A stretch of 64,000 nucleotides of DNA from an uncultured Verrucomicrobiae bacterium (GTDB lineage: Bacteria; Verrucomicrobiota; Verrucomicrobiia; Limisphaerales; Palsa-1400): contig OY969763.1 of the NCBI GenBank assembly GCA_963702845.1, forward strand, positions 3,360,001-3,424,000. Reading direction: 5' to 3'. Each line of letters opens with the position of its first letter. Within the stretch, counting starts at the first letter, position 1. This document shows, in pieces, positions 38,166 through 63,773 of the stretch. The position numbers were made by a program, and so were the translations under genes. The notes below the pieces were generated by a model. That model did no database searches and had not been told where the DNA came from. It saw nothing but the letters and a program-made list of their open reading frames with translations.

Positions 38166-41543
<3,378 letters not shown>

Positions 41544-41639
41544 CGGATTCGATCCGTCATCGAGTGATGGACGGATTATGTTTTTCTTTCCCTTAGTGTC
41601 CACATGTCCGCATTTTGAAAGTTGAATTCTGAATTTTTG

Positions 41640-43473: not shown

Positions 43474-44862
43474 ATGGAAAGAAAACAAATGCAAGCATCC
43501 GCGGAAACAATCTGGCAGGCAGCTCAGCAAGTGCTGCGCACAACGCTGAACCCCGACATCTACAATCTTTGGTTTCATCCGCTCAAAGCAGTCATGCTCG
43601 AGACGGACACGCTCACGCTCGAAGTCGGCGACGATTTTTGTGAAGTATGGCTGAAGGACAACTACGCCGGTTTGCTGCGTGACGTGCTCTCGACCGTTTC
43701 GAGCCAGCAAATGAAGGTGAAGTTTATGGTGGCCAACGGCGCTCCGGCGTCGGTCTCGACACCGAAACCCACGGAAGAGATCAAAGCCAAAGCGAAGATT
43801 TCGATTGAAGTAGCCGAACGCAGCACCACCAAAACAACTGAAGGTTCTTTCAACCCCAAGAACACGTTCGATACGTTCGTGGTCGGCGAAAATAACAATC
43901 ATGCTCATGCGGCGGCGCAAGCCGTTGCTTCGGCGCCCGGAAAATCTTACAACCCGCTGTTCCTCCACGGAGGCGTTGGTCTAGGTAAGACTCACCTGCT
44001 CCATGCCATCGGCCAGCACGTCGCCAATCATAAGAAGGGCGCGCGCGTCATGTATTTGTCTTCGGAGAAGTTCACGAACGAATACATCGACGCCATCCAA
44101 AACAATTCAGTGGTTAAGTTCCGCCGCAAATATCGCCAGGCGGATGTGCTGTTGATCGACGACATCCAATTTCTCGCAGGCAAGGAACGTATCCAGGAAG
44201 AATTTTTCCACACGTTCAACGCCCTTCACGAAGCGCACAAACAAATCGTGCTCTCGTGCGATCGTCCGGCGAGTGAAATTCAAAATCTCGAACAGCGCCT
44301 TGTCTCGCGTTTCGAATGGGGTCTGGTTTGCGAAATGCAGGCGCCCGATCCCGAAACGCGCATGGCCATCTTGCGCAAAAAAGCCGCGGCGATGGGCGTC
44401 GAGTTGCCGGAAGACATTCTACAGTTCCTGGCGAACAGGATTCGCACGAACATTCGTCGCCTTGAGGGCGCGCTGATTCGCGTGGCTTCGTTTGCGTCAC
44501 TTACGGGCAAGAAGCTCACTCTTCAAACGGTTGAGAGTCTCCTGCGCGAAGTGCTGCACGAAGAAGGCCGGTTCGCCATCAACATCGATTCGATTCAAAA
44601 GCGCGTTGCCGAACATTTCGACATTCGTCTTGCCGACATGACAAGCAAGCGCCGCCCGGAAAACATCGCTTTTCCCCGCCAGATCGCGATGTTCCTGTCG
44701 CGCCAAATGACCGAAAGTTCGTTGAACACCATCGGCGAAGCCTTCGGTGGCCGCGATCACGGGACCGTGCTGCACGCGTGCCGTTTGGTGAAAGACCGGA
44801 TGGAAGTTGATTCGCACGTCCGCCAGGTCGTGCATTATCTGGAAAAGCAATTGATGCGCTAG
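43474..44862 (+). CDS. dnaA: Chromosomal replication initiator DnaA
   Basis: YNPLFLHGGVGLGKTHL, LLIDDIQF, QEEFFHTFN, RLVSRFEWG, GGRDHGTVLHA. Confidence 0.98.
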   Translation: MERKQMQASAETIWQAAQQVLRTTLNPDIYNLWFHPLKAVMLETDTLTLEVGDDFCEVWLKDNYAGLLRDVLSTVSSQQMKVKFMVANGAPASVSTPKPTEEIKAKAKISIEVAERSTTKTTEGSFNPKNTFDTFVVGENNNHAHAAAQAVASAPGKSYNPLFLHGGVGLGKTHLLHAIGQHVANHKKGARVMYLSSEKFTNEYIDAIQNNSVVKFRRKYRQADVLLIDDIQFLAGKERIQEEFFHTFNALHEAHKQIVLSCDRPASEIQNLEQRLVSRFEWGLVCEMQAPDPETRMAILRKKAAAMGVELPEDILQFLANRIRTNIRRLEGALIRVASFASLTGKKLTLQTVESLLREVLHEEGRFAINIDSIQKRVAEHFDIRLADMTSKRRPENIAFPRQIAMFLSRQMTESSLNTIGEAFGGRDHGTVLHACRLVKDRMEVDSHVRQVVHYLEKQLMR

Positions 44863-49097: not shown

Positions 49098-50843
49098 TTA
49101 CTTTGGCGGTTCGATGTTGTGTTTTACCGCCGATGAACTCTGGCCCGAAGGTTTCGCGGCCTCGTCAAGCGGATGCTCTTCTTCGTACAACTCCTGTGGC
49201 ACTTTTCCTGTCACAGCCGCACGACTATAGGGATAAATATCGGGATCGAAGATGACACTGTAGAGATGCCACACCAGAATCGCCAGACAGGCAAGGATCG
49301 CTTCGTAGAAGTGCACGGTGGTCGCCGCATCGACACACCACCGCTGCAGGAAGCGCGTCACATCCATTTTAAACCAAATCATAAAGCCGGTCGCGCCCAT
49401 GATGATCGTTCCCCAAACCACCGCCCAGTATTCCATCTTTTCGATGTAGGAGAACCGTCCGAACCGCGGTTTCAGCGGACTCATGCCGAGCAGGTACTGC
49501 GCTTGCTCTGAGATATCGCGGGCATCTTTCAGCGCCGGCAACATGTCTTTGACCAATCGGCGACCTTCCCTCGAACCCATGATGTAGCCCAGGTGGTAGA
49601 CACCACCAGCGAGCATAATGATTCCAGCAATGCGATGCGTCCAACTGCGCACTGCTTCGGTGCCGAGCGCATGCGCCCACCAGTTGTCCGGGAACTTGAG
49701 CGCGAAACCCGTCCAGGCCAGCACAATGAAACTGAGCGCGAGGATCGCGTGTTGAGTGCGTTGCGAAACGTACATGCGCACCACACTCGCGCCGTTCACA
49801 TGGCGACGCGCTGCAACTTTTCGTCCCATCAACAGACCGTTGTGAGCGATCATTGCGCCAATCACTCCGATGATCATCGCGAGATAAATTTTGCGTATCC
49901 ACCAATTCACTTTTTCGCCGAACCCTGCGCCGGCTTTGCTGCTGGCGACATCCACGTGGACTTTGCTCAACGCAAATCGTTCGTTCGCTCCCGGGTGACA
50001 TTTGCCGCAGGTCTGGACCAAATGGTCCTTGTTAATCGTCGAATGCGGATCAGATGACGGCAGAATTTTGTGAAACCCATGGCAACTGCTGCAATCAGCA
50101 GCGACCGCCGACCCGTAGGTCGCCGCAAGCCCATGATAACTTTCAAAAAACGTCTTCACACGATCGCTCGGCATTCGGAATTTGGTGTTAATCCGCTCCG
50201 ACGCGTGGCACTTGCTGCAAACCATTCTCGAAATATCCAAAGGCGAACGAGCTTTCAGCACCTCGATCTTATGTTCTGCATGGCAATCGGTGCAGGTGGC
50301 TGCTTCACGTTTGCCGTGCAATGATCCCTGGCCGTGCACACTCACGGCCACGTCTGCGGCTGGGTCCTTGTGACATTGTCCACAGGTTTGAGTGATGTGC
50401 TCAAAATTCAGAGGCGAATCGGGCAATGCCGCCGTGATTACGCTATGGTTTCCGTGGCAAGTGACACAACTGGGCGCGTTGGTTGCCCCTTTCTTCGCGG
50501 CCAAGCCATGAACGCTCGCTGCGTAATAGTCCGATTGCGTCTGGTGACAGCGCGCACAATCGACCGGCTTTGCTGCGAGATTGTCATCGGGATGCTTGTC
50601 GGTAAGATCGCTGTGACAACTCATACACGAGTTCGTTTTGTGCACCGACGCGTTCAGCTTGCTCACGTCACAGAAAACCGAACGAACGATGCCGGTTTTG
50701 TTAGTGGCGGTGAGAGTCTTGTCCTCGTGACATTGCAGGCAGTCTGCGTTGCTGATTTCGGCAGCGAGGATTTTCGCTCCGCACCAGAGCAGAAGCGTCA
50801 GCACGAACAACGCGGCACCGCGTGTCCGAAGTTTTATTTTCAT
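49098..50843 (-). CDS. CbcL-like 9-heme cytochrome c fused to an FdnI/HydC-type cytochrome b domain
   Basis: 9 CxxCH; TM region with His ligands (TQHA, WTHR, TVHFYEA, VWHLY); FSYIEKMEYWAVVWG. Confidence 0.85.
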   Translation of the reverse strand: MKIKLRTRGAALFVLTLLLWCGAKILAAEISNADCLQCHEDKTLTATNKTGIVRSVFCDVSKLNASVHKTNSCMSCHSDLTDKHPDDNLAAKPVDCARCHQTQSDYYAASVHGLAAKKGATNAPSCVTCHGNHSVITAALPDSPLNFEHITQTCGQCHKDPAADVAVSVHGQGSLHGKREAATCTDCHAEHKIEVLKARSPLDISRMVCSKCHASERINTKFRMPSDRVKTFFESYHGLAATYGSAVAADCSSCHGFHKILPSSDPHSTINKDHLVQTCGKCHPGANERFALSKVHVDVASSKAGAGFGEKVNWWIRKIYLAMIIGVIGAMIAHNGLLMGRKVAARRHVNGASVVRMYVSQRTQHAILALSFIVLAWTGFALKFPDNWWAHALGTEAVRSWTHRIAGIIMLAGGVYHLGYIMGSREGRRLVKDMLPALKDARDISEQAQYLLGMSPLKPRFGRFSYIEKMEYWAVVWGTIIMGATGFMIWFKMDVTRFLQRWCVDAATTVHFYEAILACLAILVWHLYSVIFDPDIYPYSRAAVTGKVPQELYEEEHPLDEAAKPSGQSSSAVKHNIEPPK

Positions 50844-50851
50844 ACAACCTC

Positions 50852-53023
50852 TCAGTGGACCAGGCGGGTGACCATGGCGTAGATAATCAGCGCCAACAGC
50901 ACCAGTCCTAAACCGAAGAACAAATATCCAAAGCTGCGCGCGATGCCCTTCCAGCGCTCCCACTCGTCTTTGACGCGGTATTGGTCCAACTTGCCCGACG
51001 AGAGCAGCCGGTCATACCAGCGCTTGCGTTCGTGGAGCATTTCCGCTTTTGAAATGCGTCCTGAGAAAATCACTGTGTCCATGGGGAATTTTTCAATACG
51101 GAAGTGCGTATTGAAAAAGTGCACCGTGAAAATGAATCCAGCGGCAAGGAGCGCCTCGTCAGAGTGAACGATCAGCGCGATGTTAATGGCCCAGCTTGGC
51201 AGGAACTTCGAAAAGAATTGCGGGAACCACATGATCAAGCCCGACACGCCGATCGCGAACACGCCCCAAAACACCGCGAAGTAATCGAACTTTTCCCAGT
51301 AAGTCCAGCGATCGAACTCCGGTTTCGGTCCTTTGCCGAAGAACCATTTCTGATGTGCGATGAAATCCTTTACATCCTGCCACGTCGGAATCATGGAATC
51401 TGGACCAAACAAAACGTGTAGGAGCCGTGAAACCGACCACTTGCCGGTCGCCGGGTCACGCAATGCCTCCCGCTTGCTCCAACTGTTCACGAGCAAGCGA
51501 CCGACGTGCAGCCCAAAATACAGGAACGTGATGATTGCGCCGAAGTGATGCAATACGCGGGCGACTTGCGTTCCGCCGAGGATATAGAAAATCGATTTGG
51601 CCCAACTCGTGTAATAGAACTTCAGTGGCATTCCGGTCACAACGAGGAGCAGAAAACTTGTGACGACCAGGAAGTGCAGGAATCTCTCGTATGGCTGGAA
51701 TCGCGTGAACCATTCGCCGCCGCGTTGATGCGCATGAACCTTTGCTTCGCGGAACGTTTTCGAATCATTCACGTATAGATAACCAGATCGGAAAATCCAC
51801 AGCGCCGTGTGACCACCGAAAAATGCAAATACACCGATCAACAATCCCGTCATCCCGAAAAACACCGCGTTAAGTGCTGGATAGTTTTTGTGATCCAACG
51901 GATTCGCATGCGGCACGTATTGCGCAAAGCTCTCACTGGCATCGGCATGACATTTTTTGCAAGTGCCGACGATGTTCGCATTCGATAACCGCGAAGCCGG
52001 ATTGGATCGCGGCAAAACATCGTGTGCGCCGTGGCAGTCGTAACAAGCGGCCACTTCTGGCGCGGCGTTCGGTTTTCCTAGCGCCATCGCTTTGCCGTGA
52101 TACGTGTCGCGATAATGTTCGAGCCGGTCCTGGTGGCATTTTCCACAGCGCTCGTCACTAATTTCCTTGAAGCTACTTAATTCCGGTGACCCGATAGTGT
52201 GCGCCGTATGGCAGTCCGTACAAACCGGCCCGCGTTTGTCACCTTTGGCCAAAAGCTGTCCGTGCACACTAGCGTTGTATTGTTTTTCAATACCCAGATG
52301 ACACTTGCCGCATGTTGTCGCGACATTCGCGTGGTTTACCGTGGAACTGCGGTCAACACTGCGTTTTATATCATGCACCCCATGGCAGTCGTTGCACGAG
52401 GGCGCGACGATCAACCCCATCTTCAATAGCGCCTTGCCGTGCATACTGTCCGTGTATTGCGCCGCGACCTCCGGATATTTCATCCGATACTCCGTCGTGA
52501 TGCCCTCGTTGCTATGACACTTTGCACAGGTGCGCGGCAGGTTGAGTTTGTAAACAGGTGACTCGGGATCTTTCACCGCCATGATGTTGTGCGTGCCGTG
52601 ACAATCCGAGCAGCCGGCGGCCGCTGAAGCGCCCATTGATTTACTCACGCCATGAATACTTTCAGCGTAATTTTTTACGGCGTTGTCGTGGTCCGATTTC
52701 GCTTCATGACAATTATCGCAACGCGGTGCCGGCGGATGCGCTTCGTGAACCAGATCTTTGAAGCCGCGGTGGCAATCGACGCAGTTCAGTTTTCCGTGAA
52801 TAGATGCCTTAAATATATTGGTTGGAAAAACGGCCATCGGCACGGACTTGCCCTTCACCATGCGAGAAGTGGTTGGGTCGGTATGGCAATCGAGACAGTC
52901 CTGATTAGAAAATGTTTCGGTGACAGCAACAGATGTACCGTTGAATAAGAGCCAGATAACCGCAGCAAAGAGCAGAATAGTACATCGTCGAGAGGCCGCA
53001 ACAACACCACCACTTTTACTCAT
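50852..53023 (-). CDS. CbcL-like 11-heme cytochrome c fused to a cytochrome b domain
   Basis: 11 CxxCH; FLHFL, VLHHF, IVHSDEA, TVHFF; WTYWEKFDYFAVFWG; start uncertain. Confidence 0.85.
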   Translation of the reverse strand: MSKSGGVVAASRRCTILLFAAVIWLLFNGTSVAVTETFSNQDCLDCHTDPTTSRMVKGKSVPMAVFPTNIFKASIHGKLNCVDCHRGFKDLVHEAHPPAPRCDNCHEAKSDHDNAVKNYAESIHGVSKSMGASAAAGCSDCHGTHNIMAVKDPESPVYKLNLPRTCAKCHSNEGITTEYRMKYPEVAAQYTDSMHGKALLKMGLIVAPSCNDCHGVHDIKRSVDRSSTVNHANVATTCGKCHLGIEKQYNASVHGQLLAKGDKRGPVCTDCHTAHTIGSPELSSFKEISDERCGKCHQDRLEHYRDTYHGKAMALGKPNAAPEVAACYDCHGAHDVLPRSNPASRLSNANIVGTCKKCHADASESFAQYVPHANPLDHKNYPALNAVFFGMTGLLIGVFAFFGGHTALWIFRSGYLYVNDSKTFREAKVHAHQRGGEWFTRFQPYERFLHFLVVTSFLLLVVTGMPLKFYYTSWAKSIFYILGGTQVARVLHHFGAIITFLYFGLHVGRLLVNSWSKREALRDPATGKWSVSRLLHVLFGPDSMIPTWQDVKDFIAHQKWFFGKGPKPEFDRWTYWEKFDYFAVFWGVFAIGVSGLIMWFPQFFSKFLPSWAINIALIVHSDEALLAAGFIFTVHFFNTHFRIEKFPMDTVIFSGRISKAEMLHERKRWYDRLLSSGKLDQYRVKDEWERWKGIARSFGYLFFGLGLVLLALIIYAMVTRLVH

Positions 53024-53158
53024 GCAACGAGCATGAATTTTAAGCCCTCCTAATACTCTCCGTTGTTTGTGGAACGATCCCCATTTTTTGCATTGCAAAC
53101 TCTTGACCCACAACAACGAGCAACTGTTATTGCGACCTGCAGCGCAATTTCGGCGAAG

Positions 53159-53605
53159 CTATGCTGCAATTTCCTCAATCTGGTCCGCTATTTCACACAG
53201 CAGGTTGTAGTAATCCTCCTTGGACATCCCCAGCGCGTAGGCGCCAAACACTTCTGCGTCTTCCGCTGAAGCAAACTCGCCGTAGTTCACCAGCACGAGT
53301 TGATAAAGCACTACAGCCGGAACTTCTTTCAAACGGGTCATCAAAAGCGGATGAACGAAAATCTTGAAGCCATCTTCCGGATTTTCGCCCAGCGGTTCAG
53401 GATGTGCCATTTCGCCGAGGTGCAGACCGGCCGTATCGAACACAATTGTGCACGGATACCGCACGCACATCCGATCTTCCAACAGCAGTTGAAGTTCGTT
53501 CCAACCGATGTGCGGGCCATATTTTTCAAACACCTGCGCGCCTTTGTCACCGGCGTGTGCCGTAAGAGATTGGCGGGCATCTTCGACGGTTAATTTCTTT
53601 TCCAT
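53159..53605 (-). CDS. Hypothetical cytoplasmic protein within the cytochrome operon
   Basis: 148-aa ORF starting 4 bp after the NrfD stop; no heme motif. Confidence 0.7.
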   Translation of the reverse strand: MEKKLTVEDARQSLTAHAGDKGAQVFEKYGPHIGWNELQLLLEDRMCVRYPCTIVFDTAGLHLGEMAHPEPLGENPEDGFKIFVHPLLMTRLKEVPAVVLYQLVLVNYGEFASAEDAEVFGAYALGMSKEDYYNLLCEIADQIEEIAA

Positions 53606-53609
53606 ACAA

Positions 53610-55355
53610 TCACACTTTAGCTGTCGCGACTTCCCTGCTTAGGTCGGTCTCAGTGGGCATCACCAGTTCATGCAATGAAACGCTCTCATTTACTTGCAAG
53701 AGACGGCCCTGCAGGATCGGAACGGCCATTCGTAAGAACAGAGTATAGGCCATAATCCCAAACGCCCAGATGCCTACGCAGACTAATGTTTCGTTCATGC
53801 TCGGCGAATATTCGACGATTTCGCCCAAGGGGGTTGGGATGAATCCAGGCACCACCAGCCCCATGCCTTTTTCGATCCAGATGCCCACAATGGACAGGAC
53901 ACAAGCAACGTCGAGCCATTTCAAGCTCCGACTAATGGGTAGAATCAGCAGAACCATCGCGATCAGGTTAAAGGCAACCGCGGTCCAAATCCACGGCACC
54001 AATGCGTGGTGACCGTCCAGACCGAAGAACAGGTAAGTCGCCGATGAGACATTCTTGGACTTGCTGTAAAACTCCTTAAACACTTCGTTAAGCAACAGGA
54101 AAACGTTAATCAGCATCGCGACCTGGACAATGCTGCGCAAAGTCATCAATGACCGGTCAGTGATCATCAATCGTTCCGACATCCTCGCGTGGACAATCTG
54201 GTTCAGCCGTGGAGTTTTCATCAACTTCCTCAGGCCTTCCGCTGAGACGCACAAGATAGTTGAATGCTCTTCCGCGATGGCCGTGGCCGTCCGCACCGTT
54301 CCGGCAAGAGCAGAGACTTCTCCAAATTGATCTCCCGGACCGGCCGTGCGGATAATTCGATAGCGCCCATTCTCTTCGCGCTTGATGACGACGCGGCCAG
54401 TTAATACGAAGAACGCTTCCTTCTTCATTTGTCCCTGGGTGAGCAAAATATCTCCCACAGATGCTTCCAGGACCGTTGCATCCGCCGCTACTTCCTGCCT
54501 GATCGCCTGGCTGACGCCTTCCATTTCCAACAAATGTTTCGCCAGGTGTTTGAGGTCGTCCAATGTCGCTGGACGGCTGGGTAAAACTTCGTGCGGCGAC
54601 GGCCCATACCGCAACGCCGTTGAGGAGGTGACTCGCCGCACCACTTGTAGCGCCAAAATGATCAGCGCCGGGCCAGCCGTAAACGCCGACGCCAAAAAGC
54701 GTGGACCGACTATCGCCGAGTTCCAAAAATGTCTTCCACCCAACCCGACATACAGAAAGGCGGTTACGGTATGAATCGAAATCGCCCAAACAATTGCGAT
54801 AAATACGAATGGAATGTAAAACCACTTTGATGGCTTCCGATTGCGATACCGACAATAGAGCAGATACCCGCAGATATAGACGTTAAGAAACAAGTAGCCG
54901 TTGAGAACGACGACGTCCCAGCTCAACATCGAGTGAGGGAAATTGAATTGTCCAATGCCAGGGATGAGGTGCCAGAAGCGGTCGGGTCGGCCAAGGTCAA
55001 CCGTCACAAACGCCAGGCACATCAGAATCGCAGCCACCGCCAACAACTCGCCGAAAATGACAAGATCATGCAGGTCCTCATTGCTGTATATATAGACAGG
55101 GATGACCAACATGGCAGCCGCAGCCGCAACGCCAACGATAAATGTGAAGTTGGAGATATAGACGCCCCAGGACACCTGGTCGCTCATGTTCGTTGTAATC
55201 AATCCATGCACGAACTGTTTGCAGTAGGCATTTAACCCCACCATGCAGAGGATAAATAAAACGCCCAGCCAAAGGTAGTAACGCCAGTCACCGACAAATG
55301 CCACCCTCGCACAGCGGTACAAAAACCGCAGATAATTTTTTGCAGCAGTAATCAT
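53610..55355 (-). CDS. NrfD/PsrC/DsrP-family membrane subunit with inserted cNMP-binding domain
   Basis: SWGVYISNF, VDLGRPDRF, SMLSWD, IHTVTAF, WIEKG motifs; insert with GDILLTQG...GRV...FGEVSAL...RTATA. Confidence 0.9.
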   Translation of the reverse strand: MITAAKNYLRFLYRCARVAFVGDWRYYLWLGVLFILCMVGLNAYCKQFVHGLITTNMSDQVSWGVYISNFTFIVGVAAAAAMLVIPVYIYSNEDLHDLVIFGELLAVAAILMCLAFVTVDLGRPDRFWHLIPGIGQFNFPHSMLSWDVVVLNGYLFLNVYICGYLLYCRYRNRKPSKWFYIPFVFIAIVWAISIHTVTAFLYVGLGGRHFWNSAIVGPRFLASAFTAGPALIILALQVVRRVTSSTALRYGPSPHEVLPSRPATLDDLKHLAKHLLEMEGVSQAIRQEVAADATVLEASVGDILLTQGQMKKEAFFVLTGRVVIKREENGRYRIIRTAGPGDQFGEVSALAGTVRTATAIAEEHSTILCVSAEGLRKLMKTPRLNQIVHARMSERLMITDRSLMTLRSIVQVAMLINVFLLLNEVFKEFYSKSKNVSSATYLFFGLDGHHALVPWIWTAVAFNLIAMVLLILPISRSLKWLDVACVLSIVGIWIEKGMGLVVPGFIPTPLGEIVEYSPSMNETLVCVGIWAFGIMAYTLFLRMAVPILQGRLLQVNESVSLHELVMPTETDLSREVATAKV

Positions 55356-56314
55356 ACGTCAAAGTAGTAATAAAATCGTGGGTTGTTCCCGACTTCCTCT
55401 TTCAATTGAATAAACACGCGCTTCTCCCGAAGGATGTGATAAACCTCGCTATTCGGATCGAGCACGTTGCCAAATTTTCGAGCGCCCGCCGGGCAGACGT
55501 CGTGGCACGCGGGCATCTTTCCGGCGCGCGTCCGTTGAATGCACCAGTGGCACTTTTCCATCACGCCTTGTCGGCGCGGACGATTACCAAGATAGGACAT
55601 GTTCGGGTTAAGCCGCTCTTTCGGCACTTCCGGTTTCGTCCAATTGAAGCGACGCGCAAAGTAGGGGCACGCGGCTTCGCAGTAGCGGCAGCCAATGCAC
55701 CAATCGTAATCGATTACAGTAATTCCATCCGATTCCGTCCACGTCGCTTTGACAGGACAAACCTGGCTGCAAGCAGAGTTGCGGCATTGCTGGCATGCCA
55801 CGGGCATGTAGAAGAAGCCTTTTTCCGGCACTTGCGCCGTATCATAATTGTGTTGGCCCTCTTCCGGATTGAGCGAGCCATGCGGCATCTTCAACACGCG
55901 GATGTATTGCATCTCGGGATTGCGTGACAAATTATTTTCCTGGGCGCAGGCGTGAACGCATTTACGACAACCGATGCAACGCGTCAGGTTCAGGCAATAG
56001 ACAAACTCCACCCCGTCCATCGGCTTGTAATCCTTCACATGGGGACGGATGCCGTATTGTTTCTCGACTTCTTTCTCGATGCGCTTTAGCACCAGGCCCA
56101 TTTCGTCCGGCGTCATCTCGCGATAATGCTTTTGGAAAAACTTTTCCATGGACGTGTAATCCGTCAGGTCACGCAACGGCTCTAGCGCGGCCGCCATTGC
56201 CGCCACGCCGGCAATTGCCACGGCTGACGTGCGCAGGAAACTGCGACGATCAACCCGTTGTCCGCCTGAAGAACATCCACCCGAACTCGAATCGGTTTTG
56301 CAATTGCAGCTCAT
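55352..56314 (-). CDS. Tat-exported 4Fe-4S dicluster protein (NrfC/DsrO-like)
   Basis: DRRSFLR Tat motif; CIGCRKCVHAC, CQQC...CSQVCP, CIGCRYCEAACP, EKCHWC...PACHDVCP; ATGA overlap. Confidence 0.92.
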   Translation of the reverse strand: MSCNCKTDSSSGGCSSGGQRVDRRSFLRTSAVAIAGVAAMAAALEPLRDLTDYTSMEKFFQKHYREMTPDEMGLVLKRIEKEVEKQYGIRPHVKDYKPMDGVEFVYCLNLTRCIGCRKCVHACAQENNLSRNPEMQYIRVLKMPHGSLNPEEGQHNYDTAQVPEKGFFYMPVACQQCRNSACSQVCPVKATWTESDGITVIDYDWCIGCRYCEAACPYFARRFNWTKPEVPKERLNPNMSYLGNRPRRQGVMEKCHWCIQRTRAGKMPACHDVCPAGARKFGNVLDPNSEVYHILREKRVFIQLKEEVGNNPRFYYYFDV

Positions 56315-57012
56315 GAGTAAAATTCCTGTAGTGAGGTTACAGCTTTGGTCGTTGAAACTTCTTTGGAAGCAGGTTCCTTCGAACCTTGCGCTTTGCGCGT
56401 CTCTGGCTGTGGATGCAACAAGTGCGGCCCCGGCGCGGGTTTGCGTCCGGGAAATTTCGGATGATGCGGATCGTGGCAAGCCGTGCAAACCTCGCGCTTC
56501 ATTTCGCCGAGTTGCGTATTCCAGTAGCCACTGGTCCGGCCATGCATACCAGCTTCCCAATCGCGATAAGTCGGTCCGTGGCAGCTGCCGCACAACGCTG
56601 GACTATTGGTAATACTAATCTCGCGGCCGTCACGTGCCTGCAGCGTGTCCAGCTTCGATTCGTTGTGACAATTGAAACAATTATTATTTCGATCGTGCGT
56701 GCCGTGTCCCATCACAATGTCTTTATGTTCGACCGGCACTACGATCTTCCCTTCCTTATCGAATTGGATTTTCGGCGGTTTGGCTTTGTCGTGACAGGCG
56801 TAACAGTCAAAGTCGGAAAGGTCGGCTCCAGTGCGGTAAAGAAATTCTGCCGGAACACGCGCGGTCGCGGTGCTCAGAAAGTTCGTGTCAACCAGATCGA
56901 TATGCGGGAGCACTGGCGCCTTGCCCCAGAGGTTCAACAGGAACGATCCCGCAAGGCCGAATAGGGCAATTGTCAGTCCGGTCAATACTGCGTTAGTTTT
57001 CGAACTTTTCAT
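56311..57012 (-). CDS. Membrane-anchored tetraheme cytochrome c
   Basis: N-terminal TM; CYACH, CFNCH, CGSCH, CTACH. Confidence 0.88.
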   Translation of the reverse strand: MKSSKTNAVLTGLTIALFGLAGSFLLNLWGKAPVLPHIDLVDTNFLSTATARVPAEFLYRTGADLSDFDCYACHDKAKPPKIQFDKEGKIVVPVEHKDIVMGHGTHDRNNNCFNCHNESKLDTLQARDGREISITNSPALCGSCHGPTYRDWEAGMHGRTSGYWNTQLGEMKREVCTACHDPHHPKFPGRKPAPGPHLLHPQPETRKAQGSKEPASKEVSTTKAVTSLQEFYS

Positions 57013-57104
57013 TTGCTGGTAGTAATTTGCTCGTTTGACACCAATTTTGACTCAACTTTACTTGTCAGAGGTTTCGCATTTTTTGCTTAGTAGTCCCCAC
57101 CCGT

Positions 57105-58577
57105 TCACAGACCGCCGTTGTGACAATCCGTGCAGAGATACGCCGGGTCATATTCCTCTTCAGGATGTTTGAATTTCTGCCCGAGGCTGAGCTGTTCCAA
57201 TTCCTTGCCCTTTCCTTGCGCGATAATTGTGTGACATGCATCACAGTCGTTGGACTTTATGCTCAGCGTACGGTCGCTCGTTGTGTGTTTGCCGTCATGA
57301 CAACGGAAGCAGCCCAGCCAATCCTTATGCCCGATGTTATCCGGATAGGCTCGCCAGCTGGCTTTCATTTCCGGGAAAAAATTGTCACTGTAAATCCGTT
57401 GTACGGTGTCGATGGCCGTGCGCACGCGCGGCTCATCACCAAATTTGTTCAATAGTGTGGTCGCGATTCCTTGCATCGCCTCGGCGTCGTCTTTATAGGG
57501 CTTTACCAATACCCCGATGGCGTTCGTTTTTATAAAAGGCAACGCGCGATCAATTTTTCCAAGCGAGAGAGCCATGTTGACTGCATTCTCAGGAGTCTCG
57601 TAACGGTGCGCCGGTCGATTGTGGCAATCCATACAATCCATTCTCCGGACCGCAAACTGGGTCAAATCATTGGTATATTTTGAATCGCGGAATTCGCGCA
57701 CCACGCCTTGCGGATCGGTCATGCGGACCCATGGAATTTTCTGCCGCGCATCGTCCACCGCGGTGTACTCAATCTTGTTGCCAACATTCATGTGCCAATG
57801 AATTCCTCCCACCGGCCCATGTGTTGCATCGCCACCACCAACCTTCAGCAACATGCGAATCGAAAACGGCGAATTGTCTTTGTCGGTTAAGAAATAATTA
57901 AAGGTTCGCTCAACATTGCCGACAAATTTTTTTGGCCAGTGACATTCTTCGCATGTCTCTTGAGCCGGGCGCAGATTCTTCACCGGCGTCGGAATGGGCG
58001 TCGGATACTTTTTTGCGAGAGTCGCGTAAACCTGGTAGCTGCCGGAAAGCTTTGAACGCACATACCACCCTGCCCCTTTGCCGATATGACATTCTGCGCA
58101 CGCGACGCGTGCATGTGGCGAGTGCTGATAGCTGACCATCTCTGGCTTCATCACACCGTGGCAAGCCTGCCCGCAGAATTGCACCGACTCCGTATAGTGA
58201 TAGCTGTGGTAGCTGCCCACCGCCGTCGCCAGCAGAAACGCCACGCTGCCTGTGAGGAAGCCGGCCAACAGCCGCCGATCACGTGGTTTTGATAAATCAA
58301 TGCGTATCGGCGCAGTTCCATCCGTGGACACTACCTTGCGCCGCCACAAGACAGCGCCCACCACAAAAATGACAAACCCGAGCACCAAAAACATTGGCGC
58401 GACGAGGTAAGTAAGAATTCCAACATACGGATTCGAAAAATGCGAAAACGAATCCAGCACAAACAACAGCACAAACGCGAAGACGCTGGCCACCACGATG
58501 GTCAGGCCGCTCAGGCTGATCCAATTGCGAAATAAAGAGGGGCGTTGCGCAGAAGCGGGTGTTGGGATTGCGGACAT
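57105..58577 (-). CDS. ImcH-like NapC/NirT-domain 7-heme membrane cytochrome c
   Basis: 3 N-terminal TM; FCGQACH (CX3CH) plus 6 CxxCH; RSKLSG, LRPAQETC, MDCMDCHNRPAH. Confidence 0.85.
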   Translation of the reverse strand: MSAIPTPASAQRPSLFRNWISLSGLTIVVASVFAFVLLFVLDSFSHFSNPYVGILTYLVAPMFLVLGFVIFVVGAVLWRRKVVSTDGTAPIRIDLSKPRDRRLLAGFLTGSVAFLLATAVGSYHSYHYTESVQFCGQACHGVMKPEMVSYQHSPHARVACAECHIGKGAGWYVRSKLSGSYQVYATLAKKYPTPIPTPVKNLRPAQETCEECHWPKKFVGNVERTFNYFLTDKDNSPFSIRMLLKVGGGDATHGPVGGIHWHMNVGNKIEYTAVDDARQKIPWVRMTDPQGVVREFRDSKYTNDLTQFAVRRMDCMDCHNRPAHRYETPENAVNMALSLGKIDRALPFIKTNAIGVLVKPYKDDAEAMQGIATTLLNKFGDEPRVRTAIDTVQRIYSDNFFPEMKASWRAYPDNIGHKDWLGCFRCHDGKHTTSDRTLSIKSNDCDACHTIIAQGKGKELEQLSLGQKFKHPEEEYDPAYLCTDCHNGGL

Positions 58578-58627
58578 ATTGATTTGTTCCAATTTGAAAA
58601 TCTGATGACAACGCCCTTTGCACCCTT

Positions 58628-58656
58628 ATCCCCTCTCCTCAAATGAGGAGAGGGAT
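58628..58656. repeat. Hairpin/palindrome, possible terminator or mRNA-stabilising element
   Basis: CCCTCTCCTCA-AA-TGAGGAGAGGG between the monoheme and ImcH-like genes. Confidence 0.55.
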
Positions 58657-58673
58657 TAATTCACGGACGATTA

Positions 58674-59006
58674 TTACTTCTTGAAACTGCGCATTTTGGC
58701 CACGAGCGCTTTGATTTGATCGTCGCTCAGACCGTCAGCCGGTTTCATCAGCGTCTTGCCGTCCTTGTCTTTCAATCCTTCCTTCACGGCTTTGACCGCT
58801 TCATCGTCCTTCACTTCTCCTTGAACCTTGGCGTCGGTGTAATCCTTCGCGCCAAGTTTCTTGCCCATCTTTGTGTCGCCTTTGCCATCGGGTCCATGGC
58901 ACTTGGCGCATTGTTTGTCATAGTTGGCCTGGGTATCGTCGGCACGCACGCTGATCAGGCCGAGTGCCGAGAGTGCAATTCCCAGTATCAACAGGTTCTT
59001 TTTCAT
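58674..59006 (-). CDS. Periplasmic monoheme cytochrome c
   Basis: Signal peptide; CAKCH; distal Met in LMKP. Confidence 0.92.
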   Translation of the reverse strand: MKKNLLILGIALSALGLISVRADDTQANYDKQCAKCHGPDGKGDTKMGKKLGAKDYTDAKVQGEVKDDEAVKAVKEGLKDKDGKTLMKPADGLSDDQIKALVAKMRSFKK

Positions 59007-59117
59007 GTTTTTCTCCTGAGCTTATGTTTTCATCCCGGCGCCAAGCTCTAGCTCGTCGGGCGATTTCCTGCGGGAAATCGTTGCCGGCCGGGACCCGATC
59101 CAAGACCGGCACCGAAA

Positions 59118-59447
59118 TTACTTCTTGAACGAACGAATCTTGGCGACGAGTGCTTTTGCATCCTCATCAGTGGCGGCTTCCAGGGGTTTCATGCGGACTT
59201 TTTCACCTTCTTTCACCCCTTCCTTAATGGCGGCGATCGCCTTCTCGTCTGTGAATGTGGCTTGATACTTCGCATCGGTGAAATCCTTCACGCCGATCTT
59301 TTCACCCATCTTTGTTTTGCCTACGCCGTCAGGGCCGTGACATTTGGCGCAGGTCTTTTCCCAGATTGCATTGGCATCCCCCGCGCAAACAGAGGCGGTA
59401 ATGGTTCCAAATGCGACGAGTGTCGCAACTAATGTTGATACTTTCAT
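59118..59447 (-). CDS. Periplasmic monoheme cytochrome c (paralog)
   Basis: MKVSTL signal peptide; CAKCHGPDG; RMKP. Confidence 0.92.
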   Translation of the reverse strand: MKVSTLVATLVAFGTITASVCAGDANAIWEKTCAKCHGPDGVGKTKMGEKIGVKDFTDAKYQATFTDEKAIAAIKEGVKEGEKVRMKPLEAATDEDAKALVAKIRSFKK

Positions 59448-59926
59448 ATGTGGTGGTTGATTTGTTGCGGTTGCACATGCCAATACTTTCTGGTCCGCTT
59501 GGCCTTCGTTAGCATTAGCATTGTTAACTTTCACACCATCAGAATGAAGCACAGGCTAATTATGGGCTTCTCGGTAATTGCCAATTAGTTGACGTTTCTT
59601 GCGCCATACCAAACCGCATTTGGTGATGTGCCTTTAGCTGACAGAGGAATGTGCTGTGAATACGACGTAAATCCGGTTTGAAGTGAACTACTGTAGGCAA
59701 AAATTATGTTGTCAAATTCACAATTCCCGCAGGCAAAAAATGCCTGGTCCCGCTTGGCCACCACCAGCTCGCCCGCTCGTTTAAATTATGAAAAGGAAAC
59801 TACCGACGCGTTGGTTTTCAAATTGACTGATGGGCCCAATCACATCCTCGCCACAATCCCGCATTGCATTAGAGGAGGTCAGAGCGCAAAACTGGTCCGT
59901 CACCACCACCAAAACTCAAAACCATT

Positions 59927-60103
59927 ATGGACAAAGTCACACGATACGAATGGCACGGCAGTTGGCTCCTGTTCCTCGTTCTTTGCGTATTCGGTATAAC
60001 AATCCCGTTCGCAATCCTTTACTTCATCACGAACCTTCTCACGATCCAAACACAGGTTGCCGACGGCACCAAACTTTCCGAATTCCTCGAAACACGAGCA
60101 TAA
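59927..60103 (+). CDS. Small membrane protein (58 aa), absent from the ORF track
   Basis: MDKVTRYEWHGSWLLFLVLCVFGITIPFAILYFITNLLTIQTQVADGTKLSEFLETRA*. Confidence 0.6.
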   Translation: MDKVTRYEWHGSWLLFLVLCVFGITIPFAILYFITNLLTIQTQVADGTKLSEFLETRA

Positions 60104-60119
60104 ACTCACTAGCCAGCAA

Positions 60120-61286
60120 CTACCTGGCCACGGGCGCACTCGTGCGCAGAACAGGCACAATGGTGTTGGTGCTCAAGGTAACAGCAGGAACATTATTGCT
60201 CACAACAACCACAGGCGCGACCGCCGCAAGATTCAACACCACGTTCGTATAACTTCGCGTCGAGTGGCATGTGCCCGTGCACGAGCCGCCATTGGGGTTC
60301 TGAATGAAATTGACCTTCAACATCCAGCCGCCCTTGCCGTATGGAACGGCATCGCGAATCTGATGTTTTTGCGATGACGCGTGGACCTCATGACATGCAC
60401 GGCAGGTCCGGCCACGCTCCGCCTTGTTGACGTGAACGAAGTGAAGGTTCTTTGAGCCATTGCGGAACTGCGTCAGGTTGGTCGTCGTCGCGCTGGTGAA
60501 AATCGTTTCCTCGTGGCATTGGAAACATAGCCCATAATTCTTCGCGTCGTATGGCGAATAGAACGTCGCGGGAAAGGCATCCATCAAAATGCTGTAATGG
60601 TCCGAACCATGCGGCTGATGGCACGCCGTGCAATCCTTCGACGCCACCGGTCCGTGCTGTTCCGGATTGTTCGCCAGCACCGTCTTGATGTTCTGCAACA
60701 GCTTACCGACGTGGTTCGTCACGCCGTCTTTGCCATGGCAATCCAGGCAAAGCTCGTAAGCTGGTTTCGCGAGCAAATGTTCGTGCTCCGACGCATGCGG
60801 ATTGTGGCAGTTAAGACATTTCTTGCCCGTGGTTAATGCGTCATGCTTCACCTTCGAATTGAGCGACGCATCTTTAATCGGGTCATGGCAGGTCAAACAA
60901 AGCGCATCGGGCTCATTCACGAGCAATTTTACCTTCATCGAATCGTGCGGGTTATGGCAAAGCGTGCAGTCGGCCTCCATTGGTTTGTGCTTGTACTTTA
61001 GCGTGATAAGCTTCTTGAAATCATCGTGGCACTCGATGCAGCTCGCGCTGATGTTCGTGTTCGACAACGCCCCGGGATTCTTCGGGTCTTTATTGACGTG
61101 ACAACTGCTGCAGTCGTTTTTGTCCGCGTCGTACGCCTGGTGCGACGACGCGCCCTTCACTGCCAATGGCAACAGTAACTTTTTGTCAGGGTGAACCATT
61201 GTTGCGACCGCGAGCGGATTCTTTTCCGCGCGGGCGACAACTGTCGCAGCCATCAAAGCCGCGAGCATCAGTGAAAGGTGTTTCAT
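60120..61286 (-). CDS. Periplasmic 10-heme cytochrome c
   Basis: 9 CxxCH plus CTGTCH; paired CHNPH...LCxxCH repeats. Confidence 0.9.
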   Translation of the reverse strand: MKHLSLMLAALMAATVVARAEKNPLAVATMVHPDKKLLLPLAVKGASSHQAYDADKNDCSSCHVNKDPKNPGALSNTNISASCIECHDDFKKLITLKYKHKPMEADCTLCHNPHDSMKVKLLVNEPDALCLTCHDPIKDASLNSKVKHDALTTGKKCLNCHNPHASEHEHLLAKPAYELCLDCHGKDGVTNHVGKLLQNIKTVLANNPEQHGPVASKDCTACHQPHGSDHYSILMDAFPATFYSPYDAKNYGLCFQCHEETIFTSATTTNLTQFRNGSKNLHFVHVNKAERGRTCRACHEVHASSQKHQIRDAVPYGKGGWMLKVNFIQNPNGGSCTGTCHSTRSYTNVVLNLAAVAPVVVVSNNVPAVTLSTNTIVPVLRTSAPVAR

Positions 61287-61994
61287 TTAGTGTTCCACAG
61301 TTACTTTGGCGTTCTCGATCATCACCGGCCACTTGTAACCGGAACCGAAATCGCGGTTCAGCGTGACTTTGCCCGTCACTAAAATAGTATCGCCAAGTTT
61401 CGCCACGCTTTCGGAAGTAACCATCAAATCATTATTGCCAGTGCCGCCGGTGCCGTCTTTGACGTGAATCCAGTTTTTGCCCAATATTTTACCGTTATAT
61501 TTCGTAACTTTGCCACGCACTGTGACGGTTTTACCTTTGAGACCGTCCTTCTTGGCAAAAATCTCCTCAACCGTGACGCCACCGTCGGCTTTCTTGACCC
61601 CGGTCAAATCGACCTTTGGCGCTTTAGTAATACTCGGATGTCCCGACGGCAATGGTTCATCACTCTTCGCTATCGGCCGCTCAACCCCCTCCGCCGCCGC
61701 GCCGTTCACTGAAACTTTGTCGGTAAAATAAACCGAATCAAAATCGCGGTCCAACGCGCGGCTGTGATAACCCGCCACCGACATTGAATTCACGATCACA
61801 ACGGCGTCACCAACCTCCACCTTAATCGTCGGCGTCGCTGCCCAGACTTTCGCCTTTCCCGTGTCGATCTGTATGTAGGTGTAGGACGCCACATTAGTCG
61901 TTTCGAGCACCTTGCCCGAAATCGTCTCGGCCGCGTTTGCGCAAATACCGGCCACAACCAGGCAACCGGCGATCAATATCATTTTAATTTTCAT
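61287..61994 (-). CDS. Secreted OB-fold protein in the cytochrome operon
   Basis: Signal peptide; GKVLET...YTY, LPSGHP linker, VTVRGKV...GKNWIHVKDG. Confidence 0.75.
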   Translation of the reverse strand: MKIKMILIAGCLVVAGICANAAETISGKVLETTNVASYTYIQIDTGKAKVWAATPTIKVEVGDAVVIVNSMSVAGYHSRALDRDFDSVYFTDKVSVNGAAAEGVERPIAKSDEPLPSGHPSITKAPKVDLTGVKKADGGVTVEEIFAKKDGLKGKTVTVRGKVTKYNGKILGKNWIHVKDGTGGTGNNDLMVTSESVAKLGDTILVTGKVTLNRDFGSGYKWPVMIENAKVTVEH

Positions 61995-62048
61995 AATTTC
62001 ATAGGTTCGGCACGTTGCTTCGCGCGCGCCTCAGTTTCATAATCGCAT

Positions 62049-63773
62049 TTAGTACCGCATCTTTTCATCGTGCGGCGTTCCGTGACACGTCAACGTGCAC
62101 GACCGACTCCCAACTCCGCCGTCATTAAACGAAATGACACCTTTGTTCGGAGTCACGTAAAGCTTGTTGAAATTAATCAGTGCTCGCGATGTCGCGACGC
62201 CATGCGAATCGTGGCAGGTCGTGCAGGCGGTCTGTTTATCAACGATGTGCTTGCGATGAGACTTAAAGCTATCCGGCTGATCACTCAGAATGGCCGTGCG
62301 GCTATGGCACTTGTAGCACAGCGCATAACTCGCCGGGCTTTCCGGACCGTTGTCGGTCGTGACAAGTTGCCGCTCCAATAACGGCGCATATCTCGATCCA
62401 TGCGGTCCATCCGGCCCGCCCCCACCGGCGCGTGGTCCCGAGTCATTGTTGTGACAATCCGTGCAATAAATAATGCTCGTCGTCTTCAACGGCGAAATCA
62501 GGCTCGGCACATTGGGATTGCGTCCTGCCGCCGCCACCGGATGAAAACTCTCGTTGGATGGTTGGAAATTTAGCCGTTTGTTCGTCTCATTGTACTGCCG
62601 CGGCATAACCGATCCGCCTTTCTGCACACTGTCACCATGGCAGCGGATACAAAGCTCATATTCCATTTCGATGTGCTTCGTGATTCCACCCGCCGCCGTC
62701 ACACCGGGCACCCCGTTCAATCCGCCCGCTGCATACGGCGCAACAGCTTTCGTCGTCGTCGCCGCGTGCGAGTTATGACAATCCGCGCACACGACGTGCC
62801 GCATCTTTGGATTGACCAAATCCTCAGTCTTATCATGGGCCTTGCCGTTGAATCCGCTGTAGTGCGCGCTCGTCTTTCGGAGTTCCGTCGCGATGTTGTA
62901 TTTCGAAACATTCCCGTCGTGACAGCTCAAGCAGTTGTCCTCCGGCGCATCGAATTTCATCAGGTTTTTCTTCCCGCCCGCGCGATGATTTGAATGGCAA
63001 CTCGCGCAACCCATCGCCGAAACGGTGGTCGTTTTTGGCATCGTTTTCACCCGCGCGCTCACCGCGATCTTCGTCGTTGCCAGTTGCGGCGAAGGTGTCG
63101 GTGCCATCGCATGCACCGAATCCGGCCACGTCGATGGCGAGTGGCACGACAGACAAATCGCCGATGCCGTGTTGTCCATCGCGAGAAAATTACCAAACTG
63201 ATTGTCATGCGGATCATGACACGACGTACACTGCATCCGCCCGTTACCATCCAGCCGCACCTTGCCGCCTTTCAAAGTCGCGGGATCTTTCAACGTCGGA
63301 TCCTTCACCATCAAATCATGGTCGTAAACGAACGAAATCGGATGATCCCCGGACAAATCGGTCCCGAGATTCGCATGCCCGACTGGCATCGTCGTTACAC
63401 CATTCTGCATCGCAATTGGATTCACCCGGCTGCTCACACTGCCGAGTGCAACCGTGCCGTCGTGACAGCTCAAGCAAAGCCGCGACGCTCCGTTCGGTTG
63501 TGGAATTGTCAAACCGATCGCATCGAGCGTCGGACTGCTATAAACGATGTAATTCGTCATGCCAGACGAATTGTGGTTCCACAGCGGCGATGCTCCCTGC
63601 GCGCGATGCGACGTGTGACAGAAAATGCACACATCCAATTCAATCGTCGCCTTGTTCGTCCCCGGCCCACTCGCAGAAAGATTGTGTACCGAATGCACAA
63701 CCGATTCAGCGCGACTCGCCATCGCAACCACCAGCGCAATCCAGCAAGCAATAATTTGGCGTTTCGTAATCAT
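62049..63773 (-). CDS. 12-heme cytochrome c
   Basis: 11 CxxCH plus CTLTCH; SRLCLSCHDG, DLSGDHPISF, CTSCHDPH. Confidence 0.9.
   Translation of the reverse strand: MITKRQIIACWIALVVAMASRAESVVHSVHNLSASGPGTNKATIELDVCIFCHTSHRAQGASPLWNHNSSGMTNYIVYSSPTLDAIGLTIPQPNGASRLCLSCHDGTVALGSVSSRVNPIAMQNGVTTMPVGHANLGTDLSGDHPISFVYDHDLMVKDPTLKDPATLKGGKVRLDGNGRMQCTSCHDPHDNQFGNFLAMDNTASAICLSCHSPSTWPDSVHAMAPTPSPQLATTKIAVSARVKTMPKTTTVSAMGCASCHSNHRAGGKKNLMKFDAPEDNCLSCHDGNVSKYNIATELRKTSAHYSGFNGKAHDKTEDLVNPKMRHVVCADCHNSHAATTTKAVAPYAAGGLNGVPGVTAAGGITKHIEMEYELCIRCHGDSVQKGGSVMPRQYNETNKRLNFQPSNESFHPVAAAGRNPNVPSLISPLKTTSIIYCTDCHNNDSGPRAGGGGPDGPHGSRYAPLLERQLVTTDNGPESPASYALCYKCHSRTAILSDQPDSFKSHRKHIVDKQTACTTCHDSHGVATSRALINFNKLYVTPNKGVISFNDGGVGSRSCTLTCHGTPHDEKMRY

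Follow-up and report, generated by a model that had tools for sequence, protein, structure and literature searches.

A cyclic-nucleotide-binding domain inserted into an NrfD/DsrP-type membrane subunit of a Verrucomicrobiota redox module

The stretch of DNA analysed here (the window) comprises 64,000 nucleotides (nt) of contig OY969763.1. One of its minus-strand genes (53610..55355) encodes an NrfD/DsrP-like membrane subunit with an embedded cyclic-nucleotide-binding (CNB) domain, as identified from the open reading frame (ORF), Pfam, NCBIfam and an AlphaFold2 (AF2) model. The ORF encodes 581 amino acids (aa) and contains no internal stops; all residue numbers below refer to this protein. A first-pass annotation made from the sequence alone had described the gene as intact, translationally coupled to a ferredoxin gene and of NrfD/DsrP type, and had placed in it a canonical cyclic nucleoside monophosphate (cNMP) domain with an FGE...R cassette. 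The motifs that it quoted, LQVVRRVT, GDILLTQG, FVLTGRV, GPGDQFGEVSAL, RTATA and MITDRSL, are all present in the translation, and its description of the gene and domain is upheld by the results given below. The architecture of an NrfD-type protein with an internal CNB domain is real, conserved, widespread and so far undescribed.

The membrane part was assigned by profile searches. Pfam NrfD (PF03916) matched residues 55-243 (profile positions 3-202, E 3.7e-34, 119.2 bits against a gathering score of 25.8), and the remainder of this profile falls past the insert. The top-scoring named family in NCBIfam was the DsrP equivalog NF045798, with 409.2 bits against a cut-off of 350, and its match is likewise divided into two stretches by the insert. 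The core profile was nearest to ActC (6f0k_C, E 6.5e-31). Between the two halves, Pfam cNMP_binding (PF00027) matched residues 301-381 almost over its full length (profile positions 7-88 of 89, E 1.9e-17, 63.5 bits against a gathering score of 27.5). The scan with both profiles, which the first-pass annotation had suggested as a check, thus placed each of them far over its gathering score, at a level that chance does not come near to explaining.

Relatives were collected from a species-representative genome collection (at least 585 confirmed), and 78 loci (L001-L078) were kept. The alignment and the tree omit five fragmentary or frameshifted rows (L018, L047, L050, L058 and L062), all of which contain insert sequence. 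In the MAFFT alignment of the window protein with the 73 full-length loci, 153-163 extra residues were present in 55 of the 74 rows, and only two residues occupied this position in the other 19. The 19 insert-less orthologues, which have a 2-residue turn at the insert's place, each gave two abutting BLAST segments, query residues 1-244 on 1-244 and 398-558 on 247-407. The BLAST segments and the alignment to the insert-less orthologues set the whole insertion at residues 245-397 (153 aa, 54165..54623, minus strand), near-identical to the roughly 150 residues at 54165..54630 proposed by the first reading, which had also suggested this comparison with the closest NrfD homologues. Judged from these alignments, the CNB domain was cleanly inserted as a domain at the place of a very tight turn.

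The insertion can be divided into several parts, all on the minus strand. Residues 245-261 (54573..54623) form a variable N-terminal tether, which was poorly conserved and modelled with lower confidence (predicted local distance difference test, pLDDT, 76-80). The CNB fold proper, delimited by fold matches and secondary structure, covers residues 262-397 (54165..54572) and consists of N-terminal helices, a beta-barrel, the helix of the phosphate-binding cassette (PBC), alpha-B and alpha-C. The PBC itself, recognised by residue conservation, lies at residues 341-360 (54276..54335) and reads GDQFGEVSALAGTVRTATAI. At the C-terminal end, alpha-C (382-393) is joined to the seventh transmembrane helix (TM7) by only six residues, the conserved link ERLMIT.

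The insert-bearing architecture was identified in 59 of the 78 related loci, from many independent assemblies. In a collection of 5.8 billion proteins, both Pfam domains were found in all of the 120 best matches (71-92% identity), and the database names of these matches, if any, were 'NrfD/PsrC family molybdoenzyme membrane anchor subunit' or 'HybB-like'. After clustering at 50% the insert-bearing form reduced to essentially one full-length representative (P0121). The architecture search proposed with the first-pass annotation therefore recovered not a one-off protein but a widespread Verrucomicrobiota family under generic database names, and the CNB-bearing form is common in metagenome-assembled genomes (MAGs) of Verrucomicrobiota. 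According to the record titles the family occurs in Verrucomicrobiota from soil, peat, groundwater and lakes. Of 401 genomes sampled evenly from the phylum, 15 had a match at E <= 1e-30, four of which were insert-bearing (G000, G117, G285 and G291) and ten clearly insert-less; in G069 the first half alone was matched, in a 420-aa frame. Five loci (L007, L034, L036, L045 and L006) have NrfD genes that nest among those of Verrucomicrobiota, yet the titles of their MAGs read Bifidobacteriaceae, Klebsiella pneumoniae, Proteobacteria or Candidatus Acidoferrum; the probable cause is wrong binning or labelling of the records, not gene transfer. Two other loci, L035 and L039, are from MAGs whose titles name Pedosphaera. 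Two further members of the same NrfD subfamily carry other additions, a C-terminal multihaem cytochrome c domain in P0125 (616 aa) and a C-terminal extension of about 440 aa without a Pfam match in P0131 (859 aa).

An assembly or annotation artefact, such as a chimeric junction or a mis-joined gene, could in principle produce an architecture of this kind, and the genome may hold occasional frame errors, as glnA lies in two frames at about 42268-42341. However, the independent assemblies and the 120 database matches carry the same architecture, which refutes an assembly chimera; the ORF has no stops, the AF2 model is confident across both junctions, and an exact 151-nt contig from another public run spans the downstream junction at 54165. 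An artefact is thus extremely improbable. Another exact contig, of 222 nt, was not counted as bridging the upstream junction, since it extends only 22 letters to one side of it. The public sequencing runs listed as sharing words with the window numbered 14, each with at most 0.14 of the words, and no RNA run was among them.

By record title, the 19 insert-less rows came from Verrucomicrobiota (eight), Planctomycetota (nine) and Elusimicrobiota (two), and they were up to 87% identical to the window protein over residues 1-243. On the tree calculated from the core only, seven changes of insert state were required, and the starred branches force at least two. However, a single clade of all 55 insert-bearing rows was not rejected by the approximately unbiased (AU) test (p 0.108, log-likelihood difference 60.4). 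In addition, a Tyr and a Lys at the junction of all eight insert-less Verrucomicrobiota rows match the Elusimicrobiota outgroup, and in the insert-bearing forms the same Lys position is R in 162, H in 10 and K in one of 175 sequences. Because of the AU test and these shared residues, a claim of repeated loss was dropped, and a single gain of the insert is compatible with both.

The AF2 model, built on an 86-row alignment, had a mean pLDDT of 92.5 and a predicted template-modelling score (pTM) of 0.91. It contains ten long helices (24-50, 65-89, 93-121, 143-170, 177-203, 216-243, 400-430, 453-476, 478-505 and 520-548), and between helices 6 and 7 an alpha/beta domain with strands within 294-371 and helices at 265-292, 346-351, 372-378 and 382-393. 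Folds were compared with VIA-align, run on Foldseek candidates. The membrane part (about residues 9-550) matched ActC in four structures of alternative complex III (6btm_C, 6f0k_C, 8k9e_C and 6lod_C) with Z 36.3-39.0, and the eight-helix core matched PsrC of polysulfide reductase (2vpw_C) with Z 21.9 over 240 residues (model 58-509). Aligned to PsrC and ActC, the model displays the eight-helix NrfD core of two four-helix bundles. The insert (model 261-395) matched the cGMP-bound CNB domain of MloK1 (3cl1_B) with Z 17.3 and a root-mean-square deviation of 2.0 A over 125 residues; further CNB fold matches were PKG, PKA-R, Rv0998, SthK and HCN. Foldseek concurred, with TM scores of 0.77-0.80 against CNB-B of PKG, and by sequence the nearest domains were also the CNB domains of PKG and PKA-R.

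According to a review of the family, NrfD members with ten helices (ActC, DsrP, HybB and QrcD) consist of helices A, 1-4, 5-8 and B, and the N-side holds both of their termini (PMC8076601). The helix map of the model agrees with this topology, and K and R were found in 10 of 66 loop residues predicted as inner and in 5 of 83 predicted as outer when the insert was excluded. The partner ferredoxin has a twin-arginine translocation (Tat) signal. Since these lines of evidence agree, the insert is predicted to lie between core helices 5 and 6 (TM6 and TM7) on the cytoplasmic N-side. The first-pass annotation had reached the same TM6-TM7 loop by counting helices, and the structure prediction that it recommended gives ten helices with the CNB domain at this place. 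The same review puts the quinone site of the NrfD family on the P-side of bundle 1-4, beside the iron-sulfur subunit, and describes NrfD-like subunits as cofactor-less, with a continuing debate on whether and how they translocate ions (PMC8076601). The quinone site of the family has a conserved acidic or His residue where core helix 2 ends on the P-side. In the window protein the nearly invariant D120 (at least 90% of the 86 rows) sits at the outward-facing end of TM3, the core helix 2 of the model, and it may correspond to the quinone-site residue Asp106/110 of DsrP (PMC8076601).

Conservation in the sensor was analysed with 175 distinct insert-bearing sequences, namely the window protein, 121 database proteins and the locus orthologues, with identical ones removed. 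Mean identity to the window protein was 81-85% in the membrane core, 58% in the CNB fold, 76-77% in the cassette and 17-24% in the tether (245-261). The residues of the cassette were almost completely kept (G345 in 175, E346 in 174, R355 in 174, A357 in 153, T358 in 162 and A359 in 174 of the sequences), and so was the C-terminal junction (R391 in 171, M392 in 174, E394 in 164, R395 in 175, L396 in 172, I398 in 171, T399 in 167 and D400 in 172). This pattern suggests selection on ligand-binding residues. Position 356, directly after the PBC arginine, was variable (T in 55, M in 42, V in 25, A in 22 and L in 19). The residue at this position biases CNB domains towards cAMP or cGMP. The threonine of RTATA had been considered as a family-wide cGMP signature, but this was rejected and RTATA cannot be read in that way because the position varies.

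It could be argued that the insert has a CNB fold but senses no cyclic nucleotide, binding another ligand or none and serving as a structural, oligomerisation or assembly element. Among CNB folds of the CRP/FNR type there are binders of haem, 2-oxoglutarate and c-di-GMP as well as forms without a ligand, the residue that follows the PBC arginine is variable in this family, and close orthologues dispense with the insert. On the other hand, 174-175 of 175 sequences retain the Gly-Glu and Arg of the cassette, no other part of the insert is as well conserved as the PBC, and the nearest sequence and fold matches (PKG, PKA-R, MloK1 and Epac) are true cNMP binders. We therefore consider a sensor without a cyclic nucleotide unlikely.

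The gene belongs to a module of four genes in the order tetrahaem cytochrome, Tat ferredoxin, NrfD with or without CNB, and a 148-aa protein, and this order is conserved, including the insert-less loci of three phyla. All four genes are on the minus strand in the window. The first (56311..57012) encodes a membrane-anchored or exported tetrahaem cytochrome c, identified by four CXXCH motifs and weak multihaem Pfam matches; such a cytochrome lies upstream of the iron-sulfur gene in most related loci whose contig extends that far. The second (55352..56314) encodes a periplasmic four-cluster ferredoxin of DsrO/NrfC type, recognised by a Tat motif, four Cys clusters and NCBIfam, where DsrO scored 158 bits, under the cut-off of 200, and QrcC and ArrB were also matched. 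The ORF is listed with 413 aa, but translation truly starts at its Met94, which is followed by the twin-arginine signal DRRSFLR; the RR motif was present in 74 of 75 orthologues. The ferredoxin ATG overlaps the stop of the tetrahaem cytochrome gene, and the NrfD ATG overlaps the ferredoxin stop (ATGA; GTATGATT), in agreement with the translational coupling claimed earlier. A Cys-rich stretch (MSCNCK...GGC) lies ahead of the twin-arginine motif in the window. Similar stretches were seen in some relatives (e.g., L017, L030, L039 and L048) and were absent from most; at least two Cys within the 32 residues scanned upstream of the RR motif were counted in 13 of 74 rows, several of them upstream of the likely start.

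The fourth gene (53159..53605), assigned by synteny, begins 4 nt after the NrfD gene and encodes a conserved cytoplasmic protein of 148 aa, which accompanies insert-bearing and insert-less forms alike. It had no match in Pfam or NCBIfam, and its nearest Atlas entries were unnamed Verrucomicrobiota clusters. The nearest named Atlas clusters were Peptidase M48/U49/SprT (0.81-0.82), and the AF2 model (pLDDT 93.4) gave weak zincin-like, ImmA/PprI/CapP-like fold matches with Z 6.6-8.3. The helix at the expected HExxH site reads YQLVLVNYGE, in which Y101, Q102, N107 and Y108 are invariant or nearly so, and many orthologues have an added Cys/Gly-rich C-terminal tail. A role as pseudo-protease, assembly factor or Tat-proofreading factor is possible for this protein. 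A complex prediction for NrfD-CNB with the 148-aa protein (score 0.00, mark 0.32) counts neither way.

This partner bears on a further alternative, in which cNMP is bound but the output is something other than NrfD allostery, such as recruitment of a partner, assembly or turnover, or the function of a membrane-anchored sensor or buffer. The flexible and variable N-terminal tether and the 148-aa protein encoded only 4 nt downstream would fit such a role. Yet the 148-aa protein is equally present with insert-less forms, alpha-C is connected with TM7 by a short link of high conservation (R391, M392, E394, R395 and L396 above), the pTM points to a defined domain arrangement in the model, and a domain placed within a 2-residue hairpin has a mechanical coupling to each of the two helices. 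This alternative appears somewhat less probable still than a sensor that binds no cyclic nucleotide.

The module is enclosed in a minus-strand run of cytochrome genes (49098-63773, about 15 kb). Upstream of the module lie two multihaem cytochromes (62049-63773 and 60120-61286), separated by a 235-aa ORF of no assigned family (61287-61994), a monohaem cytochrome c (59118-59552), and a membrane multihaem cytochrome of NapC/NirT/NrfH type (57105..58592), which matched Pfam Cytochrom_NNT and an NrfH-like NCBIfam family, contains six CXXCH motifs and one CX4CH, and is ImcH-like by architecture. Downstream of the module are two CbcL-like fusions, in which a c domain with 11 CXXCH (50852-53116) or 9 CXXCH (49098-50963) is joined to a dihaem cytochrome b of FdnI/HydC type; both matched multihaem and Ni_hydr_CYTB families in Pfam and formate-dehydrogenase-gamma-like families in NCBIfam, and both starts are uncertain. 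A fusion of multihaem c and cytochrome b is the architecture of Geobacter CbcL, and ImcH is a seven-haem inner-membrane cytochrome (10.1101/2021.04.15.440034). Homologues of CbcL and ImcH in Verrucomicrobia have been listed by Zhong and Shi (PMC6295460). Genes of ImcH-like and CbcL-like kinds recur near the module in many relatives, and the island looks like one of the extracellular-electron-transfer type; no outer-membrane porin was identified within 49098-63773.

The genome is a single contig of 6.03 Mb with a marker completeness of 89.8%, and no match to dsrA (TIGR02064) was found in it. It contains two more NrfD genes, both distant, and two class III nucleotidyl cyclases, of which one is linked to a CHASE2 sensor and the other to a receiver domain; neither lies near the window. 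There were 10 matches to cNMP_binding in the genome, seven of them over the family cut-off, at about seven loci. Elsewhere in the window, glutamine synthetase is encoded in two overlapping plus-strand frames (Gln-synt_N at 41622-42341 and Gln-synt_C at 42268-43062), owing to either a frameshift or an assembly indel, and a P-II gene (40923-41543) lies just upstream. The dnaA gene (43474-44862, plus strand) is located about 9 kb from the module, and the window may therefore be near the replication origin.

As a whole, we hold with modest confidence that the protein is a cNMP-responsive NrfD quinone subunit of a periplasm-facing redox module. The NrfD subunit would be the quinone-site and putatively ion-conducting part of this small module, which would move electrons between membrane quinol/quinone and periplasmic cytochromes; this is the presumed physiological route. 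cAMP or cGMP, the presumed ligand, would be made by the CHASE2-linked or the receiver-linked class III cyclase and would bind to the phosphate-binding cassette. In CNB domains, the N-terminal helical bundle changes its position relative to the alpha-B and alpha-C helices when a ligand binds in the cassette. Binding would thus shift the N-terminal helices and the alpha-B/C helices of the insert, whose connection to TM6 is a floppy, variable tether and whose connection to TM7 consists of the ligand-responsive alpha-C and the short conserved link. As both ends of the domain are pinned to what was ancestrally a 2-residue hairpin, with the alpha-C/TM7 end rigid, ligand binding should alter the geometry of core helices 5 and 6 at their cytoplasmic ends. 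The NrfD review describes a proposed gate residue in mid-membrane in transmembrane helix 5, and ion half-channels in the two bundles (PMC8076601). Helix 5 with this proposed gate is the helix leading into the insert, and the output could consequently be ion conduction, quinone turnover or both. The reading that we favour, as an inference, is that cNMP directly controls the turnover of quinone or ions; any allosteric effect could be activating or inhibitory.

Several observations weigh against this reading. The residue after the PBC arginine varies among the 175 homologues, and the domain may be specific for either cAMP or cGMP. Close orthologues in the three phyla do without the insert (19 of 74 rows), and the CNB domain is therefore accessory rather than part of the core mechanism. 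When the cyclases of the genome were compared with all ORFs of the 78 related loci (blastp, E <= 1e-5, low sensitivity), no match was found. Finally, the function of the dsrOhPh-tetrahaem locus, the nearest named relative of the module, is called elusive by its authors (PMC13047784).

In general descriptions of bacterial respiration, control lies in transcription and in substrate and redox availability. If a diffusible second messenger indeed acted on a quinone oxidoreductase after translation, this would add a layer of regulation that is new. Since the NrfD-CNB family sits among ImcH-like and CbcL-like cytochromes, it may also bear on the choice of electron acceptor in abundant, poorly cultured Verrucomicrobiota. 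A handle by which a ligand operates core helices 5 and 6 would further be an experimental tool for the question of ion movement in NrfD proteins, and the natural insert-less orthologues provide built-in controls.

The first-pass annotation knew of no described example of this architecture, and in the freely accessible main texts on NrfD, DsrP, HybB and polysulfide reductase with cyclic nucleotides no such protein was described either. The words 'cyclic', 'regulat' and 'domain' are all absent from the text of the NrfD review PMC8076601. Among known systems, DsrP of DsrMKJOP resembles the window protein in having ten helices and a partner of DsrO type. The window protein differs from it by the 153-aa CNB insert, and the neighbouring genes are cytochromes, with no DsrM-like or DsrK-like genes, in a genome without a dsrA match. 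The cytochrome of the module has four haems, whereas DsrJ has three. Because dsrA was not found in the genome, the label 'DsrP' denotes sequence kinship and not sulfite reduction.

Alternative complex III consists of two NrfD-like subunits (ActC and ActF), a large ActB and the penta- and monohaem cytochromes ActA and ActE, encoded in one operon. In contrast, the window locus has one NrfD gene and a ferredoxin of about 320 aa with Fer4-type matches only, and no equivalents of ActA, ActE or ActF and no molybdopterin-like domain were detected among the neighbours by Pfam at the locus. ActC is the closest solved structure; it has no CNB domain, and like the window protein it is a quinone-site NrfD-like protein with proposed ion half-channels (PMC8076601).

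A closer counterpart in composition is the dsrOhPh-tetrahaem locus, formerly called 'candidate alternative complex III', of cable bacteria, some Desulfobulbales and Gamma- and Betaproteobacteria, which has the same three parts as the module, a tetrahaem cytochrome c, a DsrO-like Tat ferredoxin and a DsrP-like NrfD protein (PMC13047784). Its genes stand separately from dsrMKJ, and it is present also in genomes that lack sulphur metabolism (PMC13047784). In the window, too, a DsrO homologue, a DsrP homologue and a four-haem cytochrome c are found together away from dsrMKJ. With no dsrA match in the genome, the module is a DsrOP-homologue-plus-tetrahaem module and not DsrMKJOP, and its NrfD protein is a candidate member of the DsrPh clade, which is distinct from canonical DsrP. 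The loci of cable bacteria carry a one-helix protein, TMH1 (PMC13047784), and the window module has the soluble 148-aa protein instead. In the main text of that paper there is no mention of cyclic nucleotide, cNMP, cAMP or Verrucomicrobi.

The Cbc4 complex of Geobacter is composed of cytochrome, iron-sulfur and NrfD proteins, and we know of no report of a CNB domain in it. Its genes (CbcSTU, GSU0068-0070) form an inner-membrane quinone oxidoreductase cluster beside CbcL and ImcH (10.1101/2021.04.15.440034). The best functional analogy is with channels and exchangers regulated by CNB domains: MloK1, SthK, the CNG/HCN channels and the sperm Na+/H+ exchanger SLC9C1 all have, as the window protein putatively does, a CNB fold on an ion-conducting membrane protein, and structures of their CNB domains were among the fold matches. 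In these proteins the CNB domain is a C-terminal appendage of the channel or exchanger, whereas in the window protein it lies inside a loop of a redox-linked quinone subunit.

A large sister family (P0126 and relatives), 52% identical to the window protein, carries a C-terminal pair of CBS domains (PF00571), and 114 of its 120 best matches share this pair. The record names include Desulfuromonadales-type ones, Geoalkalibacter, Malonomonas, Thermodesulfovibrionales and Desulfobulbaceae, and no description of the family was found in the literature as judged from search listings. Its sensor is on the same cytoplasmic face as the CNB insert, but it has a different fold and a C-terminal position instead of a place in a loop. 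The CNB insert and the CBS pair therefore indicate that a cytoplasmic nucleotide-type sensor was acquired at least two times in the subfamily, with different folds and positions, and this speaks for the module as a place where allosteric control is exerted. Tentatively, and at somewhat less than even chance, a second messenger may directly gate a redox-driven, possibly ion-translocating quinone module, which would be the first respiratory-chain enzyme with a built-in cyclic-nucleotide switch, and together with the CBS-bearing sister family it would make modules of DsrOP homologues and tetrahaem cytochromes general points of allosteric control, at which signals from cytoplasmic nucleotides set how electrons exit from the quinone pool to periplasmic or extracellular acceptors.

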